Below, in pieces: positions 3,531 to 63,346 of a DNA stretch of 64,000 nucleotides. A program made the translations under genes and the position numbers. Source of the DNA: Flaccisagitta enflata (Eukaryota); assembly GCA_965153355.1 (NCBI GenBank), contig OZ231126.1, positions 18,724,001-18,788,000 on the forward strand, in the 5' to 3' direction. The first letter of the stretch is position 1. Each line of letters begins with the position of its first letter. The notes under the pieces are model-generated. The model did no database searches, had not been told where the DNA came from, and saw only the letters and a list, made by a program, of their open reading frames with translations.

Positions 3531-3593
<63 letters not shown>

Positions 3594-3620
3594 AAGAGAG
3601 AGAGAGAGAGAGCGCGAGAG

Positions 3621-3673
<53 letters not shown>
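3478..3673 (+). repeat. Compound (CA)n/(GA)n microsatellite; representative of many in the window (for example 28200, 40810, 51152, 60745, 62380)
   Basis: Directly visible. Confidence 0.95.
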
Positions 3674-3675
<2 letters not shown>

Positions 3676-4089
3676 GATAAAGGAAGACCGAAAAAAGACA
3701 TGGAGAGACAGATTGAATGACAAAAACAGGCAGGCTGTCAACCAGGCATCATCAGATGCACACAGAAGAACATGCACCGAAACAAGCCCGACCGGGCAAC
3801 GATGTGTCTGGGCCGTGTCCCTACGTGTATTGATCATGTGACATATATGAAGAGACAGATGGATGAACATGTTGGTTGGCTGATCATTTGTTTCAGTATA
3901 GGATCTCACCGTGGCCAAAGACAACCGAGAAACGCGGTTTTTGCACCTGCGTAACAGACAGACAGACGGACGGATGGACAGACAAATGGACGGACCGACG
4001 GACGGACAGACCCTCTTATAGAAATGCGTTTCTGAGGGACGCATTAAAAAGAACTTTTTTCCAGTCGGCGAGAGCCGCCTTTATTGTAA

Positions 4090-22800: not shown

Positions 22801-25800
22801 ACACATACCCTCAACAAAACCATAAAAAAATGCATTTTTTTAGCAAAAAATGCTAATTTCTATCCCAATTCAAGGTTTTTCCTTAGATTTTCCTAGCTAT
22901 ATACAGATATAGATGACAAAAAATTGTCAGAAATGTTTTTCAGTAAAGCTAGGATACTGAAGATTGGGATTCCCTCATGACCTTTGTCAAAATTGTATCA
23001 TTCAATATAGTTATTGACTTTTTTATCAATGCACATAAAATTCTTTTGTGATGAAAATTACAAAAAAGTCTCTGGACCCAACCAATACTGTACAATTTTC
23101 TCATTTTTTGCACAGGTATGATTTTACCTCACAATATCTTTAATTCAAGACCATTGCCAGGATTGTGGCACTATTTGTTTGGAAATAAGAGTTGGATAAA
23201 AGGATGCTTGTCAAAGCTCAACAAAACAAGCAAAAACTCAAAGTAAAAACTATACTTTGCTCTAAATAATACAAAGGGATTCAGTTTTCTTAATGAGCCT
23301 TTGGCAAAATACAGATATAAAAATCGTTTTTTAAGAGCTTTCTGAACCTGTTTACAGAATCATTCTACCATTTCTAGAAGCAAAGATACATCGTTTTCTT
23401 TGGTCCTGTTTGGGGTGGTACTCCCTGTAGTGCTTTCACGCTCAAGGAAAGAATCGTGATAATTGTGTTTTTTTTATAAATAAATCAGTATTATCAGGAT
23501 TTCTTCTTTGAGCGTGAAAGCATTGCATAGTTGAGACTAATATCTCACTTTTAAGACCAATCTGACCATTTTACATTGATTTGTAAAGAAATAAAATTGA
23601 TTTAAAGCTGCAGAGGTCAGTTAATCAATATTTTCAGAAACTTCACATGGGGTAAATCACAATTTTACTCAAAACCACATGCAAGCTTAACCGCTAGAGC
23701 CAGTGCTATGAAATTTTTCATGAATAAACGGTAGGTTATGTGCTTTAGGAAAAAACCAATCCAAAAAATGAATGTTTTAGGCATAATAAAGGTTTTGCTG
23801 GTGTCCGTTGCTTTTGATTTCAGGGTAGATGGACGAACAGACGTCCCCTCTTAAACAGATGCGAGACGCATCTAATGATGCATGTAAAAAACTTAATTTG
23901 AATTTAATTTTTTACATTGACTGAATTTGCTGATATGGGAGTGATGCTTTTTGTTGTTCCTGAGTGAGGCCGCTAGGAAATTTGGTTGGCCCCACATGTC
24001 CAAAGAATTGCGAAAACTGAATTTACAGAGCTGGACGTAAAAGAAGAACAAACTTGGAAGAGGGCAAGTGCGATAGTCCCCACTCGATACACCACGAATT
24101 GGGCCATGCTCTTGGACTGGAGCACGAGCAAGAAAGACCTGATCGGCTGCCCGACAAAATGCCCAATGCTCCAGGAGTATGTCCATTAGAGAGAGTATTC
24201 ATGATGTGTATATGGCTCTCCTCCATCTTATCGAAACACAGGATCAAGCGATTTCCAGATCAATTTGTTAAGGACAGTGTAATACAATTATCCGTTTGGT
24301 TATAGATAGGTAGCTTTGTTACAGTACGATGGGAACAAAGACGACCTAGACTGGAGGATAGATTTTAATTACTTTGATTTTGATTCCTTTTCTAGTACCA
24401 CGGATCAAGCTACCCTATGGATCAATTTCATCAATATTTGTCTTCAACTTATGATGTCTTATCGGTTATGCACTATCCTTCTCATACTGTTGTGGACAAT
24501 CTTGTTTGGGGGAGGCACACGAAGGAAATTGACCGATACAGAACCCCGGTGCTTATTGTGATTAACAACCTCTCGATTTTTTTTGTCATTCCTTGATGAG
24601 TTCGCTATCTCATTGTTAAACCGTCAATTTGCTTTTGCAGGATCCTTGTTATCAGCAGTTTATTGGGTACGGGTCAGAGCCATCATTTTACGATGTGAAA
24701 GGTGAGGCTGTGTTTTTAAACATTTGTAGAGTACGTTGGGAGTAAATACAGCCTAAACAGGAAGACAGTGTTTAAGTTTCCTAATTTGGATAATAAAATA
24801 TTTAGAATTTTAAATTTTGCCGAAAATTTGGTGTTAAACAAAACAAGGCAAAAGTCTCAGACAGCCTGGTAGGGGATGTACTACAAGAATACAGCACAAC
24901 AGTATTTCACACCTACATATTTTACAACAACCTAATACCTAACAACCAAAAAAAAAACAGTTTCCAAAAATATTTTGGAAAGAGGGATGTACAGAGGGAC
25001 TTACAAAGCAAGGTCTAAAAACGCATATTCGCACCTAAATTTAGTCAAAAAACTGATTTTTTACATAACACTGTATAAAATTCTCTACCAAGTACTGTAT
25101 ATGAACTTTCATTCGCGTAGTAATGATACAGATACATCGAAAAACAATCATCCGCTAAAACTACAATAATTATCTGAATGTAGAAAATGAAAATTATGGG
25201 TATGAATTTCGCTTTAAAGAACCTCATCAGCCAGTCTGTTTTGATCCACCATTTTTAGGAATTAATTTGGCGTACAAGTGTGGCCTCCGTTGCAACTCGA
25301 CCGTGGTTACCCAGTGCGCCGAAAAAGGTCAGTTTCTTCAGCAGCACAAAACCTTGTTGAAGTAGTTGCACTGGGGTTTAAATAGTGTTTTTTTTTTTTT
25401 TTTTGTCGACTCTACGATCAAGGGGACGATTGCTACGTCGGTGGGGACTGTGAATGCCTCTGCCCCTCCATGTGGTGGGATCCCTGTCGGAGATCTCCGA
25501 GTGAACCTCCTAAAATAGTTCCATGTGATTATGGAGTTTACAAGTTTGGCCAAGGATGGCAATGTGCCAACGGAAGATGCATCGATAAGGAATTTCTTTG
25601 CGATGATTATGCCGGTTAGTTGTTCATTTTTCCTTAGGGTGAGTGAAAAAACCTACCCATCGTGTATTTTGGTTTTTTCATTTTCATCTTTTTAATTTTC
25701 TTCGTATTTTTCCTCACCCTTGTCTTAATCTTGCTTTTCTTTCTTACCTTCTTCTTTTTATCTTCATCCTTATCTTTTTCTTATTCTTCTTTTACTTATA

Positions 25801-27217
25801 TTCTGTTCTTCTTCTCTTTCTTTCTCTTCTTCTGCTGGCTGCTGCTCTTTCTGCATCTTCTGCTCATGCTCTGTCATAAGCGGTATCATTATTAACGATT
25901 TTTTCTAATAATTTATACCGTGTAGATCCAATTTAACGACCTTGTAGGCACAAATGTTGTAAAATTGTCTTTATGATTTTTTTTCCATTTGATCTGATCA
26001 GCAAGCAACAAGTGACGCGGGGTCACAATATCGTTGCGGACAGGTGGGCAGGGGTATCCAACCCCCATCCACACCCCACGACCCCCACCAACACACATAA
26101 CCCCCCCCCCCGCAACAATATCTATAACGCTCGTTTTTTTTCACTTCTCGGCTGTAGACGGACGGACAGACAGACAGACATGTCCGCAACTAAAAAACAA
26201 GTGAGTCATGATAGTTTGAATGGAACAAAATCTCCTGAAAATAGACATTTCAGCCGAAGTAAGATAACTTCTGAACCTATTCAGCTAAAGAGATGCGGTT
26301 TGCAATTGCATAGCTTGAAATATGTTGAAGTGTTTAGGCGTAATTGATCAACGTGCGGTTGTCCTACTTGGAAGATGGAACAGTCTCGTTGTAGCAACCT
26401 CTCTTTCTACTAGTGAATAAAAGAACAAGGCCGGATACACGGCCATCAGTTGCGGACGGGTGGGCAGGGGCGGATATGCGCGTTTTCCCACTTTTCGACT
26501 CTTGCTGACGGACCAACGGACCGACGGGCGGACGGACGGACAAAGTCTCTTATAGAGTTGCGTGTCCGCAACTAAAAATTACAGATTGCGACGACGGTGA
26601 GGATGAAATCTGCGCGGGTGGTAATTCGTTCGCGTATTGCCCATCTTGCACCGACGATTCTACATTTGCATCATGTAAAGTGGAAAAGGTCGTGAAGAAA
26701 AACGTGACGCTTTTCTACTGGCCCTGGACCGGGCAACCCGGTTTGACGATGAGTTGCGAGGAAGCCGTTGATAAATACCCTCGCTACATGTGCGCGCACT
26801 ACGCCGAGGCGAGAAATCAAGACTGTTGCATGGAATGTTATCGAAGGAATATCACCACCGGCATTTGCAAAGATCAGTCGGACGAGTGCAAACGAATCAC
26901 GCATCAGGATCAATGTTTTGGGTAAAGATGACGCATCAATAATGTTATATTTGTATATCGTTAATAGGGCTTTAGATTTCATTTTTTGAATGGGTATTGT
27001 TCCACTTGTCACATTATACGTGCTAGCGATGGGAAGGAGTTCACCAACGCAGTAATTTTTTTTTCATTCCCATCAGACGACCTGACTTGTGGGACAAGTG
27101 TCCTATCGCTTGCGAAATTTGTGTGGATATTTCCTGGGTCGGATCAACATAGCGCGGGGGCCCCTCCCCTTGTTGAATTTACCATCTCTCTATAACGATA
27201 AAGAAAAAGTTAAAGGA

Positions 27218-27273
<56 letters not shown>

Positions 27274-28198
27274 GAGACAGACAGACAGAGAGACAGAGAC
27301 AGAGAGAGAATTTTTTTTTCAGTGTAGATTTTTCAAGAAGGGTCTAGGCTTGGGACCCCCAGGGCGTGGTGCCCTGAGGCAGTGCCTCATCTGCCTCAAT
27401 GTTAATCCGACACAGGGTTCAGCGTGTAAGGAATCATCATGTGAGAATGGAGGCTCTTTAAATTATTACTGCGATTGCTTATGTCCTGATGGGTTCACGG
27501 GAGATCGCTGCGAACATCGAGTCTGCTCATCAGGTCAGTTGGGTGCTTCACATAGCAAGAGTTGGTTATTTCTTTTTGCCCTCTTTCCTTAATGTGGAAC
27601 CATTTTTCTTTTATCAAAAATCGTTCATCTTCCGTTTTTTAGAAAATTGTTTTTGAAGACCTAATTTGCATAATGTAGTTGGATAAAAAAATATGCTGAT
27701 ATTGTTTGAATTAGGTTTTACAAATTTCTACTCTTCGTAGAGTTGTACTTCTACCTTTTCATAAGTTCTTTCTTAAATTATGTTCTGATATTTTAGTTTA
27801 TTTTTATAAACATCATGATTTTCTAAGATAAATAATTATCCTTTTTGTAACTTAACTAGACAGGATTTTGCTGAATTCTGGCAAATCTGTGGGAACTTTA
27901 AAGCCAAAACAAAAACGGGATTTAAAAAAAAAAGGAAAATGGTCATCATTATGATTTTTGCTCCTCCACATTACCTAAGTAGGGTGAAGGGATACTCCCA
28001 ACTTTTGCACCCAATCAGGTCAGTATGCCCGTTTGACTGTTTTTGGTTGTCGGAAAAACGACGGAGAAAAGGGAGAAAAGGGAGAAAGAATTGAAACAAG
28101 TAAAGAAGGAGAAATGAAAAGAGAAATACTGAGATAAAGAATGAAAGTAGATAAAGAAGGGGAAACGGAAGAATTTTCAGAAGAATGAAAGACACTGA

Positions 28199-28285
<87 letters not shown>

Positions 28286-31046
28286 GAAGGAAGAAAGAAA
28301 GGAAGAAAGAAAGGAAATTGGGTAATGGCCCCTAATGAATGACGTTCTGAAGGACACCGGGGCGAATTTTCTGACGCTTTTATAGGGCACATTTGAGCTA
28401 ATTTTTGGTTTAGAGTGCTGCTTTTATTCCTTGAATCAAAATATGATTATATGGGGCATTTAAAGGTTCAGGTCAAGGATCAGGGGAGAATTGAGGCTTA
28501 GGAAGAAGATTTGAAGATTGAATCTAGCCTCAGCTCAAGAGGTCAAAGTTGAGGCTTGCTAGCGCAAATTTGATCCCTTACAGAGCATATTTGAGGTTGG
28601 AGAGGATCGCATACCAGTTAGAGCCAAAGGGAGGGGGGAATATACTGACATACATAAGGATAGATGGATGTTAAGCATTTCACCGCTGTGTTCTTCAGGA
28701 CATTGGCCCTTTGGGGCCGCTACCCGAAAAGAGGGAAAGAGAGAATTAGAGCAAGGGAAAAGGAAAGGGAGTGGAAAGAAACAGGGATGTGGAAGCGATT
28801 GACCGCTGCCATTTTGGTGGATGATAGAGCTACTAGTATTTGAACTACAATAGGTCGCCCAAGGTCAATATGTGGTCAGCGATACCCGTTGCCCTGCTTG
28901 CATGATTGTGAAATGGAGTGAGAGGAAGCAGGGCAGCGGCCTCAAAGGGGACGATGTCCTGTAGAACACAGGGGGACTTTCGTTCGTTTGTTCGTTTCTC
29001 CGTCCACGTTCCCCCCAGGCCCTCTCAGGCCTGAAATCTGCCCTCTCAGGCCTGAAATTTACCCTCTCAGGCCTGAAATCTGCTCTCTCAGGCCTTGAAT
29101 CTGCGAGGGCAGATTTCAGGCCTGAGAGGACAGATTTCAGGCCTGTGAGGACAGATTTCAGGCCTGAGAGGACAGATTTCAGGTCTGTGAGGACAGATTT
29201 CAGGCTTGAGAGCACAGATTTTAGGTCTGTGAGGGCAGATTTGAGGCTTGAGAGGGCAGATTCCATGCCTGAGAGGGCAGATTTCAGGCCTGAGAGGGTA
29301 AATTTCAGGCCTGAGAGGGCAGATTTCAGGTCTGAGAAAGCCTGGGGGGGACGAATGGAGAAACAAACGAACGAACAAAAGTCCCCCTGTGTTCTACAGG
29401 ACATCATCCCCTTCGGAGCCGCTGCCCAAAAAGCCCAAAAAGCATAAACCGCCGAAAAAGTAACTAGTCATCCAAGGATCGGACATGGTCAGCGGTACCC
29501 CATGCCCTGCTTGGAGTTATTAAGTAAAATAGCAGAGTGAGAGCAGGGCAGCGGCCCTAAATGGCCAATGTCCTGTAGGAAACAGGCGGGAATTTCCAGA
29601 CGTCCTTAGGGGGAATATATCAGCCTGAGAGGTAATTGAAGCGGGATTTGAGGTCTGGGGGGGAAGATTTTAGGTCTGATGATTAGATTTGAGGTCTGGG
29701 GGCAGGCTTGAGGCAGGCTTGAGGCATTAAGGGCAGATTTGAGGCCTGGAGGGCTGATTTGAGGCCTGGAAAGCTGATCTGAGGCCTGGAAAGCTGATCT
29801 GAGGTCTAGAGAGCAGAATTGAGGCTTGGAGAGCAGATTTGAGGCCTTGACAGCTAATTTGAGGACTGGAGGACTGATTTTAGGCCAGGAGGGCTGATTT
29901 GAGGCCTGGAGGGCTGATCTGATTTGAGGGCTTAGAGGGCCTAAATCAAGCCTGAGAGTGAGGATTTGAGGCCTCAATAGCCAACAAGGGGGACGGAAGG
30001 ATGGAAGGATGGACAGAAGGAGGGAAGGATGGACGGAAGGGTGGAGGGAGGGAAGGACGTCTGGAAATTCCCCCCTGTGTCCTACAGGACATCGGCCCTT
30101 TGGGGCTGCTGCCCAAATAGGGCCAAATATTTTGGCTGAAAAATCCGCCAAAAGCCGGGCTCGGCCCAAATCCAGATTTGGCCCAAAAAAGGGCCAAATA
30201 TTTTGGCTGAAAAATCCGCCAAAATCCATGCTCGGCCCAAATCCAAGCTTCACACATGGTCAGCGATACCTGATGCCCTGCTTGGAATGATCAAGTAAAG
30301 TAGTGGATTGAGAGCAGGGCAGCGGCTCCAAAAGGCCGATGTCCTGTAGGACACAAGGGTGAATTTCAAGATGTCCTTTTGAAATCGGGATGGCAGAATT
30401 TAGTCCAAAAGAGCAGATGTGAGGTTATGGAGGCAGGCTTGAGGCCTAGAGGACAAATTTGAGGCCTGAAGAGTTGATTTGAGGCCTGGAGGGCGGATTT
30501 GAGGTCTGGAGGGCTGATTTAAGGTTTTGAGGGCAGATATGAGGTCTGGAGAGCTAATTTGAGCTCTCCAGGGCTAAATTGAGGTCTGAAAGGGCTAATT
30601 TGAGGGCTCAGAGGGCCAAAATCAGGCCTGAGACTGCAGTTTTGAGGCGCCGATAGCCAAGGGGGGGATGGAAGGATGGACGGACAGACGGATGGAAGGA
30701 TGAACGGACGTCTCGAAATTCCCCCCTGTGTCCTACAGGACATCGGTCCTTTGGGGCCGCTGCCCAAAAAGGGGACCGACGGACCGACAAAGCGGGGTGT
30801 AGAGTCGCGTAGCACGCGATTAAAGAAACATTAACTTACAGGTTCATGTCTGACATGTCAGAGCAACGGAACGGCGACCGTTGATGGAGTATGTCTCTGT
30901 CCTGCCGGCCTTGAGGGAAAACTCTGCCAATGTAGCAGTGAAGACAAAAGCAGAATAAGCGTCTCAGAGACGTCTGGCACGGGACCCAAACTCATCTCAT
31001 GCTTCAACATTGCTAATAACTTCCCTAACGTAGGTCTTAGAAATAA

Positions 31047-31111
<65 letters not shown>

Positions 31112-31629
31112 GATGATGGTGATGACGATGACGACGATGATGATGATGATGCTGACTTTAATACCACATGACAAAGATTACATGTCTAAGGGCATCAAAA
31201 CGGCATTTCCTTCATTCATTTCAGAAGGATTTTCTTTCATTTTTAGTTTAGGACGCGCTTTGTCCGTCCGTCCGTGCTCATCCAGTTGAAAAGTGGAAAA
31301 ACAAGCGTTTTGTGTGTTTGTGTCTGTGGGATAGGGGTTGGGGTGTGGATGGGGGTTGAATGCCCCTGCCCAACCGTACACAACGATATTGTGACCCCGC
31401 GTCACTTGTTCTTTGGCTTTGAGTATGCTTCCCAGAACATTTCATTCATTGCAGACAAGCGGTCAGACAGACATCATCTAAAGGTGGATTTCATCACAAC
31501 TTCCACGCGTATTCAAATTCATGTTGATCTTCCTCGACTTAACTCTTGTCTTTTGTATTGACAATGACAATTGGTAGTATGGAAGGGGATGAAGGGGAGG
31601 CAGACAGACAGACAGGAAAGAGAGAGAGA

Positions 31630-31702
<73 letters not shown>

Positions 31703-32976
31703 ACACACGTGTTTTTAATTTTTTGGCAACTGACCTGATCTTCTGCAGAGCATAAAATTGGACATTTAAGTTCCAAGTTTCACATTCACGTGTCTGTCTA
31801 TCTCTGTCTCTCTCTCTTCTTCTTTATAGTCTGCGTAAAGACGCTTTCACTTTCAGAAGTCTGAGTGACCTGACCTTAAGCGGATCATTTTGGAAAATTT
31901 TTCCTTTAAAGTAAATGTCTGAGCTGAATGATAAGAAACATTTTATCTCCAGTCCAGAATTTCAACTCCCCCTCTTCCACTTTTTTAAGTTGGCGTGCTT
32001 GAGTTACGCAGGCGAATGTTGCGGCGTATGCGATGAAGGGCGCGCCTGGTGTCACGATGATGCGAAGATATGTCCCTCGATGTCGACGTCGAATTGTCAC
32101 GCAATGTCCGCACGGAATTCATGCCCCCTCAAATGCGGAATATGCAAAGAAGAAGCTTGCCCCGGAGTAAATTGTCTGAACGGGGGAACCTTGATGGAAG
32201 GCAAGTGGCTCTCGTAGTCGTATGTCAACGGAATCCAATGTAGATAATGAGGTTGTTTACATTAGAAGCATGGAAAAAAAATGCTGAAGTCAAAGTGTTT
32301 CAAAGGGGCATCCTCTGAATCACGAAATTAAAATTATTTCCACTTAAGCACACCCTAGTGCTTCAGTTGAATGAAAAAAAAACTAGTACCTTTTGCAATT
32401 CGGGCTTCAGCGGAATTGGAAGTTACTTATTTTATCACAGTAGAAAAGAAATCCCCTCCTTTCTTTCCATCTCTCAATTTCTCCTCGATTTCTTTTCATC
32501 TCTCCCTTTTTCTCCCTTCTTTACTTTTACTTTGTTTTCATCATTTTGAAAAAAAAAATGGCATGTAAGAAAAACTTATTTCCTTTCAAAAAAACTAAAA
32601 TTTTTAGGAGTTGAAATAAGTATAGAAAAAAATTTTATGATAAAAGAAAGAGCAAAAAGAAAATGGAAAAAATATTAAGATATTCAAAGATGATAGTTAG
32701 GAAAAAAAAAAATCTGAATCAAATCAAATAAGTTCCTTATTCTACTAAAATATTTGCAACCAATCAAAAAAAGACCTTAGTGACTTCTTATTTTATTTCA
32801 GTATGAAAAGATGCTAGGAGTCAATCCACTAAGCACAAATTCCAATTCCACTGAAGCACAAGGTCATGCTTCAGTGGAATGGGCCTTGACTGGCCTAATT
32901 TCCAGCCCTGAGTTCGGGATTCAATGGATAGGCCGCTTATAAGCTTAAAAGCCTGGCAGCCCCTTTCATGTGTGTG

Positions 32977-34758: not shown

Positions 34759-52909
<18,151 letters not shown>

Positions 52910-55887: not shown

Positions 55888-58800
55888 TAGAGGGGGTCAT
55901 AGAGTGATGTTTTTGGAAATTCATTACAGAACTCCGGATTCTGAGGGTTTATCAAATGTATAAAAGAGGGAAAAAAATTTTGAGCCCATAGGTTTTGAGG
56001 AATAATCTTCCAAAATGCGTCAAAGTTGAGGTGTCAAACCCACAAAAATCGCAAAAATTGCAAAAATCGCCAAAATTACAGGTTTTTCTAGATGGGACAA
56101 TCAAACTTTTTTTTTGTTCTAGGAAGAGTGTCATCAGTGAAAAGTTTACTTTTTATGCCTAGTTTAAGATAAAAAAAAGGTTAGAGCCTTATTTCCCAAA
56201 TCTTCATACCCAGGAGCAAATGTTCTGACTCCCCTTTTAGGGGTGTGTGGCACTATCGAAAAAAGCCCAAATTTGTGACTGTTTGCCTTGTATTCTTTAC
56301 TTTTTCTCAACAGATTGGTAAAAAACCTTGGGCCTGGTCTTGTTTGAAGGACATTTAATAGTAGAATTTGAAATATGGAGAATCCACAGGCAAGGGCCCC
56401 TCTGGGGCCTTCCAGGGGTCCGTAAAGGGCCATCAAATGGCCATAATAGCTAAAAATAGCCAGAAAATGAGTTATTTTGTTGATGGTTTGTCTCAGATGT
56501 ATTTGAGGAGGAAGACTTTATATCAAGATACTGTCATTTGGTGTAGGAAAACAAAAAGTTAGGTCAGGGGCTCCTATGGGACCCATCTGAGGGGCCCCAA
56601 AAGACGTAAGATGGGCAAAAATTACCACTATCCTAATAATATTTTTTCAATTTTTACACTTTTTGGTCTCCTTTTGTTATTAAATGCCTAATTATCCATT
56701 CACCTACCATCCTCAAGTGCAGCAGAGCAAAGTGAAAATAAATGTGAAGGCTGAGGACCCCTAGATGGGCCCACTTAGAGAGTCTGAGGCGCCTAGTAGA
56801 CTTCAAATTAGCCCTTGAGAGATAAATGTCAGACCTTGCAGTTGAGAAATCAGCCCTTTCACGCCTCAAATCAACACTCTCAGACTTCAAATTAACCCTC
56901 TCTGACCTCAAATTGGTCCTTACATATCATCAGTCAGCTATTTCAGGCCTACCATTAGACCTCTCAAGACTTAGATCAGCTTCTTCAGGCCATAAGAAAG
57001 CCCTTTAGGATCTCAAATGAACACTTGCGGCTGGCGCTGAACCACATATCAAAACAAAAACAATAACCAGGGAGGTCCAGATTACGAAAACTGCCACACT
57101 GCAGAATTTGACATTGGCTACTGCACATTGAAAGTACACAGAAAACAGGAATCTTTTGTGTTTTGTGTTTCTTTCTAAACTCTAAATTCTGTGAGAAATT
57201 ACAATATTTCAGTATCCAGAATCATTGCTTTCTCTTTTCTAACAAAAAAGCTGATTTTCAGTATTCCCAGAGTTCCAGTATTTCCATAGTTTAATTTGCA
57301 TTTTCATTGTATTTCTTCCATGCCTGCTGCCCCGGCTTCAATTACCAAATTCCTTCCTTTAAGCTCTGCTGTATGAAGCCATCATATGCTCTGTTGAATT
57401 TACAGAATTCTCATTGTCCATGATCAGGCTGATTAGGCTGATTTTTGACTTGAGAATGCTGATTTGAGGTCAAAGAGGGAGAATTTGAAGTCTGAAAGTG
57501 TTGATTTGAGGCTTAAAAGGCTGATTTAAGACTTATCAGGATTGATGTATATGACCAGAGGGCTAATTTGATGTCTAGAGCAAAGAAGAGCTGATTGGAA
57601 GTCTGAAAGGGATAATGAAAAGCTTCAGATGGCTGAATTCAGACTTGGGGCATGAGAGTGCTGATTTAAACCCTAGGAGGTTGATTAGTGACTTGAGAGA
57701 GCTGATTTGAGGTCTCAATGGCTAACCAATGGCTAGAAAATGCTAAATTAAGGTTCAAGTAAGGTGAATTATTACCTTAGAGCACTCTTGGCCTTCAAAT
57801 CAGGCCTGAAAAGGCTGATTGAGGTCTCTCTGAAATCTCAGAAAGCCATTACAAGGCCAGTGAAGGCCAATTTGAGGCCTGTGAGGACTGATTCAGGCCT
57901 AAGGAGGCTGATCTTATGTTCAAACAAGGAATATCATGATCTAAGAGCCAAATTTGACTTCAAATCAGGATAGAAAAGATGTAAAATGGGTAAAAATGAC
58001 CAATGTCTCAAAAAATTTTACAATTTTTTTGTTCCCTTTAAAATTAGATTTCTATTATCTATTCAGCTACCTTCATCAAGTGAAGCACACCTGAGCAAGA
58101 ATAAATAGGGGGCCCACTCAGAGGGCACCAAAAATGGTCAAATGACTAAAATCTTGACATTTCAATGCCATTTGTCTCCGTCAATCAATTCATCAACACA
58201 AAGTTTATAGGACAATGATTGCATTCATTCATTTGTCCATTCATTCAATCTTCATTCATTCATTCATTTCACTGTTGAATTAACTGAGTTTCAGAGAGGC
58301 TGATGATCAATGATTCCACATTTCTCCATCTTGAAACTACCCTTTTGCCACAAATCATGCCATAGAGGTCCCAAATCAGCCTTTTCTAACCTGATTTGAA
58401 GTCAGAGGTGACTCTTAAATCATAATATACCCTGTTTGAACATAATATCAGCCTCCTTAGACCTGAATCAGTCCTCAAATTGGCCTTGGCTGGCCTCATA
58501 ATGGTTTTCTGAGACTTCAAGGAGGCCTTTTCAGGCTTTTCAGGCCTGATTTGAAGGCCAAGAGTGCTTTGAGGTAATAATTCACCTTGCTTGAACCTTA
58601 ATTTAGCATTTTCTAGCCATTGGTTAGCCATTGAGACCTCAAATCAGCTCTCTCAAGTCACTAATCAACCTCCTAGGGTGTAAATCAGCACTCTCAAGCC
58701 CCAAGTCTGAATTCAGCCATCTGAAACGTTCCATTATCCCTTTCAGACTTCCAATCAGCTCTCCTTTGCTCTAGACATCAAATCAGCCCTCTGGACATAT

Positions 58801-61552: not shown

Positions 61553-62112
61553 TGGGCAGCGGCCCCAAAGGGCCGATGTCCTGTAGAACACAGGGGGGAA
61601 TTTCCATACGTCCGTCCGTCCGTCCGTCCTTCCGTCCGTCCGTCCATCCGTCCGTCCCCCCCCCGTTGGCCTCAAATTCGCTCTCCCAGCCCTCAAATTT
61701 GCCCTCCCAGCCCTCAATTCAGCCCTCCAGGCCTCAAATCAGCTTTCCAGGCTTCAAATCAGCCCCCCCACCTCAAATCTGTCCTCCAGACCTCAAATCT
61801 GCCTTCCAGACCTTCAATTAGCCCTCCAAGCATAAAATCAGCCCTCCATGGCTTAAATTTGCCCTCCAATCCTCAAATCGGCTCTCCAAGCCTTGATTCT
61901 GCCCTCCAGCCTTCAAATATGCCTTCAGCGGTCTAAATCAGTCATCTAAGGCCTGAAATATGCCCCCTCAGGACGTATGGAAATTCCCCCCTGTGTTCTA
62001 CAGGACATCGGCCCTTTGGGGCCGCTGCCCTGCTCTCACTCCACTTTTTCACTGGATCACTCCCAGCAGGGCATCGGGTACCGCTGACCATGTGCGATCC
62101 TTGGATGACTAG
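61553..62112 (+). mobile_element. Complete HINE-like family B element
   Basis: T-run, gggcagcggccccaaagggccgatgtcctgtagaacacaggggg, (cgtc)n, 21-bp repeats, inverted sub-TIR, ...gtaccgctgacc..., T-run. Confidence 0.75.

Positions 62113-62183: not shown

Positions 62184-63346
<1,163 letters not shown>

Follow-up and report, generated by a model that had tools for sequence, protein, structure and literature searches.

For algae, fungi and protists there is good documentation of transposon-driven intron gain; among animals, reports of it come from only a few groups. The introners of Aureococcus, with both splice sites inside the element, were reportedly first described by Huff et al. in 2016. According to the survey of Gozashti et al. 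(2022, PNAS, PMC9860276), introners occur in 175 of 3,325 genomes, with only two groups of animals among their hosts and an enrichment in aquatic organisms, and their families comprise from 5 to more than 2,000 copies. As given in the legend of Fig. 2F-G of that paper, the Aureococcus introners carry both splice sites and lengthen the transcript by 12 bp (4 from the element and 8 from the duplication), i.e. by four amino acids. Among animals, introners are described in copepods (PMC9860276), as well as in a sea urchin and in the tunicate Styela clava (Gozashti et al. 2025, PMC12130899); the latter account assigns most introners to the non-autonomous DNA transposons with inverted repeats (PMC12130899). 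In another tunicate, the pelagic Fritillaria borealis, introns derived from MITEs are reported to occupy species-specific positions (PMC11282704).

In the present study we analysed a 64-kb stretch of animal DNA (hereafter the window), in which one intron of a gene encoding an astacin-type metalloprotease is bracketed by inverted repeats. Like the introners of animals (PMC9860276, PMC12130899), it would represent a transposon-made intron in an aquatic animal. The locus combines three features: splice sites placed in inverted ends, an RNA record, and a footprint of four residues in the protein.

The host gene and its surroundings

The host gene is a multi-exon gene of the plus strand. In its product, the astacin domain is followed by (i) an LDL-receptor class A (LDLa) module, (ii) a Cys-rich region, (iii) a ShK-like module with six Cys, (iv) two EGF-like modules, (v) a second unit of a ShK-like and an EGF module, and (vi) a third ShK-like module. 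The catalytic domain was recognised by the Pfam profile Astacin (peptidase M12A) in exon 24021-24302 (E = 4.5e-07), and the same profile matched P0003, a colinear homologue, with E = 4.9e-28. When single exons were compared with Pfam, the astacin and LDLa domains were called and the EGF parts gave weak matches. There was no ShK call among the exons of the window gene or in P0003, and the ShK-like modules are defined by their six-Cys pattern alone. The features of the locus are listed in Table 1.

Table 1. Exons, introns, inverted-repeat arms and ShK-EGF linkers at the studied junction and in its counterparts
Feature	Position	Strand	Remarks
Upstream exon	26585-26921	+	Reading frame and splice signals; end of LDLa, Cys-rich region, first four Cys of the ShK-like module
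Phase-2 intron	26922-27076	+	155 nt; between the upstream exon and the small ShK exon
Small exon	27077-27137	+	Final two Cys of the ShK-like module, then 15 nt of linker as far as the donor; sequence, RNA contig letters, translation
Left inverted-repeat arm	27133-27150	+	Donor GT at arm positions 6-7
Intron	27138-27415	+	278 nt, GT...AG, phase 0; wholly within the segment bounded by the inverted repeat; RNA contig
AG-rich microsatellite	27221-27309	+	Period 4, 22.2 copies; fills the middle of the element
Right inverted-repeat arm	27399-27416	+	Ends CAG/G, the acceptor in use
EGF-like exon	27416-27533	+	Weak EGF matches in Pfam; 56% identity to the EGF of P0003; RNA contig to 27535
Unit-2 ShK-EGF junction	32143-32160	+	Paralogous, same gene; last Cys, 4-residue linker, first EGF Cys; no intron
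Linker, window gene, unit 2	32146-32157	+	4 residues; no intron
Linker, window gene, unit 1, donor 27138			8 residues (translation)
Linker, window gene, unit 1, donor 27123			3 residues (translation)
Linker, P0003, unit 1			4 residues, last ShK Cys to first EGF Cys
Linker, P0003, unit 2			4 residues, last ShK Cys to first EGF Cys

The first ShK-like module has its last Cys codon, TGT, at 27120-27122, and the final 5 nt of the small exon (27133-27137) belong to the left inverted-repeat arm, of which they form the outermost part. At its other border, the EGF-like exon ends in a phase-1 donor, AG/GTCAGT; the next exon starts at 30842 with the letters GT.

A HMMER scan with the upstream exon, which is colinear with residues 313-431 of P0003, yielded four proteins, two of which are unrelated repeat proteins. 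The third, P0001 (135 aa, 98% identical), is a fragment of the same gene from a marine transcript catalogue; it joins the upstream exon to the LDLa exon, thus confirming the splicing of two upstream exons, and stops before the studied junction. The fourth, P0003 (742 aa), shows 45% identity over the query region, and its colinearity with the window gene spans everything between the catalytic domain and the final ShK-like module, both included. It was found on contigs of 2.6-3.0 kb, which is the size of an mRNA, and is known at the mRNA level only; the 736-aa and 742-aa forms in its cluster differ at the N-terminus and not at the junction. Protein word searches with the EGF exon and with the large upstream exon gave no match, and a search with residues 300-640 of P0003 recovered only P0003 itself. 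The comparison of linkers therefore rests on one homologue family. Analysis of P0003 in the ESM Atlas pointed to clusters with astacin and ShK, most commonly molluscan, as its nearest relatives (score 0.83), which we regard as a lead only.

The unit-2 ShK-EGF exon apparently ends in AAG/GCAAGT (32196-32210), which is a classical GC-AG donor, or else at a GT located five bases downstream; an intron interrupts the EGF module of unit 2 at a point where that of unit 1 is continuous. Since unit 1 is in turn split at the ShK-EGF junction, each of the two internal repeats has an intron position that the other lacks. On the minus strand, an acyl-CoA dehydrogenase exon was identified at 35019-35228 (Pfam Acyl-CoA_dh_1, E = 9.1e-05); it is convergent with the astacin gene and lies about 1.3 kb past its last ShK-like exon.

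Very high-copy interspersed repeats are located at 26000-26080, 26420-26580 and 27540-28000, where the summed contig depths reach millions both in a second sample of the organism (X2) and in a marine metagenome (X3), compared with about 90 over the exons. One of these repeats has a tail rich in GGAC/GGACG that adjoins the exon at 26585. The region 26469-26602 is covered by hundreds of poly-A RNA reads with unrelated flanks. Long nested inverted repeats were observed at 28680-30830 (in the 3.3-kb intron after the EGF exon), 41170-42330, 57670-58680 and 61560-62030; they constitute one family of foldback-like elements with tandem arrays of a 21-nt period, and the majority of the 382 inverted-repeat pairs of the window stem from them. 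Microsatellites of the AG/GA type are unusually frequent (e.g. 3534-3680, 31048-31107, 31600-31708, 40587-40890, 43334-43435, 51150-51350 and 62380-62555). Comparison of the X2 contig 26896-27184 with the window revealed 8 differences and 2 indels in 289 nt, including two differences in the 45-nt part of the ShK exon (27105 A>G, changing Ile to Val, and a silent one at 27116), which suggests high polymorphism in the population.

Splice sites in use and the length of the linker

Two donors come into consideration, the GT at 27123 and the GT at 27138, and the CAG at 27413-27415 is followed by the in-frame EGF exon. The frame of this exon is open through the whole element, and as many as 69 GT/GC...AG pairs keep an open frame, with 17 frame-keeping acceptors for each of the two donors. 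The preliminary description, which had presented this CAG as the sole compatible acceptor, was overstated in this respect. Because so many pairs keep the frame, the choice of the splice sites must come from RNA.

DNA of the organism is also present in marine metagenomes and metatranscriptomes. In one metatranscriptome run (X7) we identified a contig of 971 nt (record 22, depth 6.46), whose letters 831-951 lie on positions 27415-27535 of the window (121 letters). There is a single difference, at 27460, and it is shared by the metagenomic DNA contig of X3. Record 22 departs from the genome at both borders of the exon, and it is thus spliced RNA, made with the acceptor that terminates the right arm.

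The donor was derived from the placement of the same contig (90% likeness, joints placed leftmost). The X7 depth is 1.93 in the bin 27072-27138, which equals 20 x 6.46 / 67, and 5.69 in the bin 27407-27473, which equals 59 x 6.46 / 67; therefore, 20 letters of the contig lie just upstream of the intron and the right piece starts at 27415. Exactly this start is predicted by a splice joining 27137 to 27416, since the G at 27137 is the same letter as the G at 27415. A splice joining 27122 to 27416 would put a T there, which would show as a piece start at 27416 or as a second mismatch, neither of which was observed. Record 22 needs a G before 27416, which fits donor 27138 and not 27123. From this letter count of one contig we infer that the GT at 27138 serves as the donor.

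RNA junctions had been named in the preliminary description as the way to fix the donor, and of the two candidates that it had left standing, only the inner one gained support; the outer one misfits the contig. Donor 27138 has G at position -1 and G at +5, and donor 27123 has T at -1, as against G at -1 in each of the four other donors read in this gene (25616, 26922, 27534 and 33216). With donor 27138 no intron sequence lies outside the element, and with donor 27123 this would be 10-11 nt. When 27138-27415 is spliced out, the mRNA retains 5 nt from the left arm and 1 nt from the right arm, and the splice recorded in record 22 keeps the frame. The ends of the element thus coincide with the splice sites, as in introners, with the acceptor read from the RNA contig and the donor deduced from its letter count. 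Because both splice sites in use lie in the two arms, the intron cannot predate the inverted repeat.

With donor 27138, the interrupted junction has 12 additional coding nucleotides at the intron site when compared with three linkers of four residues (Table 1). One of the three is the uninterrupted paralogous junction with 4-residue spacing, which had been noticed in the same gene before and was found again here. The additional 12 nt speak for an insertion into an exon, because an insertion into a pre-existing intron would add none. Such a surplus is what an insertion spliced out imprecisely would be predicted to leave, and the translated linkers support this expectation; however, the length of a linker may vary for other reasons.

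The inverted repeat and the search for transposon signatures

The two arms, each of 18 nt and complementary at 16 of 18 positions, bracket the intron that separates the ShK-like exon from the EGF exon and delimit a segment of approximately 282-284 bp (27134-27415 or 27133-27416). The earlier statement that this intron is almost entirely an inverted-repeat element therefore holds, as the intron lies wholly inside the segment. Several features typical of MITEs were found, namely terminal inverted repeats, a small size (284 bp), a lack of coding capacity and an interior composed of a microsatellite. Gapped extension of the arms detected no similarity beyond the 18 nt, and none of 500 shuffles reached the score of the arms. 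Because the arms are inverted copies of each other, the reverse-complemented segment also offers a GT at positions 6-7 and an end in CAG/G. Contigs of X2 (26896-27184 and 27321-27517) and of X3 (27360-27517) cross the borders between the element and the exons, which indicates that the element is neither an assembly artefact nor private to one individual. Among the DNA joints listed, none corresponded to an empty-site allele. A search of Rfam with 26400-28100 gave a single match (E = 0.8), located outside the intron.

A repeat of this quality is not rare as such: when inverted repeats of 18 nt with 16 of 18 matches were sought within 60-1000 nt, four block-shuffled windows gave 0, 0, 0 and 2 of them. 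What is remarkable is its position at both splice sites, which is non-random. We shuffled the two end regions 20,000 times, counting repeats whose left arm starts at most 10 nt from the donor and whose right arm ends at most 10 nt from the acceptor; no shuffle contained a repeat of at least 16/18 in this position, and the best one so placed (15/18) appeared once.

Target-site duplications, another hallmark of MITEs, were not found. The 8-bp flanks match at 3 of 8 positions, as had been stated before, and when the ends of the element were drawn symmetrically, the 6-bp flanks matched at 1 of 6 and the 3-bp flanks at 2 of 3. For the 8-bp flanks, the length expected of hAT elements, this is the level of chance, the binomial probability of three or more matches being about 32%. 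A 3-bp match, TTC/TTC (3/3), requires asymmetrically drawn ends and is weak. If an 8-bp duplication once existed, it would have changed at five of its eight positions, which is hard to reconcile with the 89% likeness still shown by the arms, unless a role in splicing has preserved the arms. With the borders of the element at 27134-27415, the four retained nucleotides (27134-27137) plus 8 make up the additional 12 nt. This arithmetic is compatible with an 8-bp duplication, and is no proof of it; the hAT label has no other support. The ends of hAT elements start with YARNG, to which the ends of the present element, CTGGG and CTGTG, presumably do not conform. The designation hAT-like MITE, used in the preliminary description, was not confirmed, as neither a duplication nor, in the 64-kb window or at 90% likeness in X2, a second copy was found.

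Searching of the 64-kb window by blastn with the element matched only AG microsatellites, and a search of the window for short core motifs of the arms revealed nothing paired. The interior of the element is similar to more than a dozen AG/GA microsatellites, several of which reside in introns of the astacin gene. In X2, the contig depth over the arms (85-97) corresponds to that over the exons (88-97), whereas the nearby high-copy repeats reach millions. Since the arm depth is that of single-copy DNA, X2 contains no near-identical copies; at 90% likeness, older and diverged copies would be missed. Several similar introns per genome, as expected of introners, were thus not detected in the 64-kb window or, at 90% likeness, in X2, and the label introner-like gained no support in the sense of a multi-copy family. 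The copy is old or solitary, and does not originate from a recent burst.

The consensus of the arms also matched at least 117 metagenomic loci (from gut, soil, sediment and sea), with one match per locus. These matches align over the 18-mer only (18-25 nt), apart from one 40-nt stretch that runs outward into the flank, and they were rejected as chance matches.

Origin of the intron and comparison with described introners

We consider it somewhat probable that the intron is a solitary, probably old MITE-like insertion in the ShK-EGF linker, spliced as a GT-AG intron by means of its own ends. In this scenario, a small non-autonomous DNA element with inverted repeats at its ends (about 282-284 bp in total) would have inserted into the coding sequence that links the ShK-like to the EGF module, and would since have been spliced out like any regular GT-AG intron. 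Its own ends would contain the signals for splicing, with the donor GT lying 5-6 nt inside the left arm and the acceptor CAG closing the right one; an element read on the opposite strand would supply the same two signals. The outermost nucleotides of the element, together with any target duplication, would stay in the mRNA; the linker would accordingly have 8 residues instead of 4 because splicing is inexact relative to the insertion. The phase of the intron (0, as opposed to phase 1 at the other border of the EGF exon) was also counted in favour of an insertion. We infer a transposon origin of the segment and an intron-free state of the site before its arrival. As regards the original proposal of a MITE that inserted into coding sequence and became an intron, the arms holding the splice sites and the additional 12 nt speak for it, and what it lacks is a transposon family and a duplication.

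The arms could also represent complementarity of the intron ends, arisen in place or selected, which pairs the donor with the acceptor and involves no transposition. They do pair with each other in both the minimum-energy and the centroid fold of the intron; moreover, there is no duplication, no family and no similarity past 18 nt, and the supposed duplication is less well preserved than the arms. We nevertheless regard this origin as unlikely. The stability of the whole-intron fold is ordinary (z = -1.49; 6 of 100 shuffles were at least as stable), the repeat reaches 5 nt (left) and 1 nt (right) into the coding exons, and a 278-nt intron has no obvious need for a clamp. In addition, the neighbouring 155-nt intron (26922-27076) has no inverted repeat at its ends, and complementarity between intron ends leaves the 12 extra coding nucleotides unexplained. 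A scenario in which an older intron at the junction took up the element, with the splice sites moving onto the element ends and the old intron sequence being lost, is improbable in our judgement. The sequence outside the element amounts to at most 10-11 nt after the last Cys codon and to nothing on the right, in agreement with the preliminary view that this is too little for an older intron. Furthermore, the two borders of the EGF exon differ in phase (0 for the intron in question, 1 at the far border), unit 2 of the gene is without an intron at this junction, and the linker is longer here, although an insertion in an intron would not lengthen it. The points in favour of an older intron are the second GT (27123) directly after the last Cys codon and the fact that borders of modules often bear introns; besides, transposon insertions are far commoner in introns than in exons.

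Finally, the repeat may be meaningless, or the gene may be broken and the RNA a cryptic splice product. Comparable repeats do arise at a rate of about 0.5 per shuffled window, and a poly-A RNA run of the organism (X23) provided no read on these exons in the approximately 6% of its reads that were examined, which makes this run uninformative on splicing. However, a repeat of this kind at both splice sites arose in none of the 20,000 shuffles, every exon has an open frame and matches P0003 colinearly over the whole gene, the frame is kept in the spliced RNA contig, and P0001 attests to splicing and marine expression of the upstream exons. Chance or decay of the locus thus appears highly unlikely. 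If, as we favour, the element was inserted into the linker, relatives are predicted to be without an intron at this position and to have a linker of four residues. It is rather improbable that the element survives from an animal introner family with arms that supply a donor and an acceptor whichever strand is read. Were this true, exon insertions on either strand would be removed by splicing at the price of four additional codons, and the genome would hold further introns of this kind.

When compared with described systems, the element shares its MITE-like character, terminal inverted repeats and spliceosomal removal with the introner elements of Micromonas pusilla (PMC11282704). Unlike the present case, the latter are described as generating a 3-nt duplication that provides one of the splice sites while the element provides the other, as leaving the length of the mRNA unchanged and as occurring in thousands of copies (PMC11282704). 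With the MITE introns of F. borealis it has in common a planktonic animal host and inverted-repeat ends. However, those introns are reported to be numerous, mostly of the non-canonical AG-AC and AG-AT types, and dependent on an altered spliceosome (PMC11282704), whereas the intron studied here is single and of the GT-AG type. The introners of animals are defined in the two surveys by families of at least five similar introns per genome (PMC9860276, PMC12130899), in contrast to the solitary intron found here. A single old copy has no bearing on the spread of introns on a genome scale, and the case adds to a known process without a new mechanism.

As in the introners of Aureococcus, the element would be a short non-autonomous one placed in a coding exon, with both splice sites inside it. 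The lengthening by 12 nt, i.e. four residues, is also shared, and the four nucleotides at 27134-27137 plus 8 would match its composition there (PMC9860276). The Aureococcus introners are distinguished in that account (PMC9860276) by many near-identical copies, demonstrable duplications and an empty orthologous site, as against one copy and flanks matching at 3 of 8 positions here. Aureococcus is an alga, while the present host is an animal; the locus would thus add an animal example of the type of introner that carries both splice sites.
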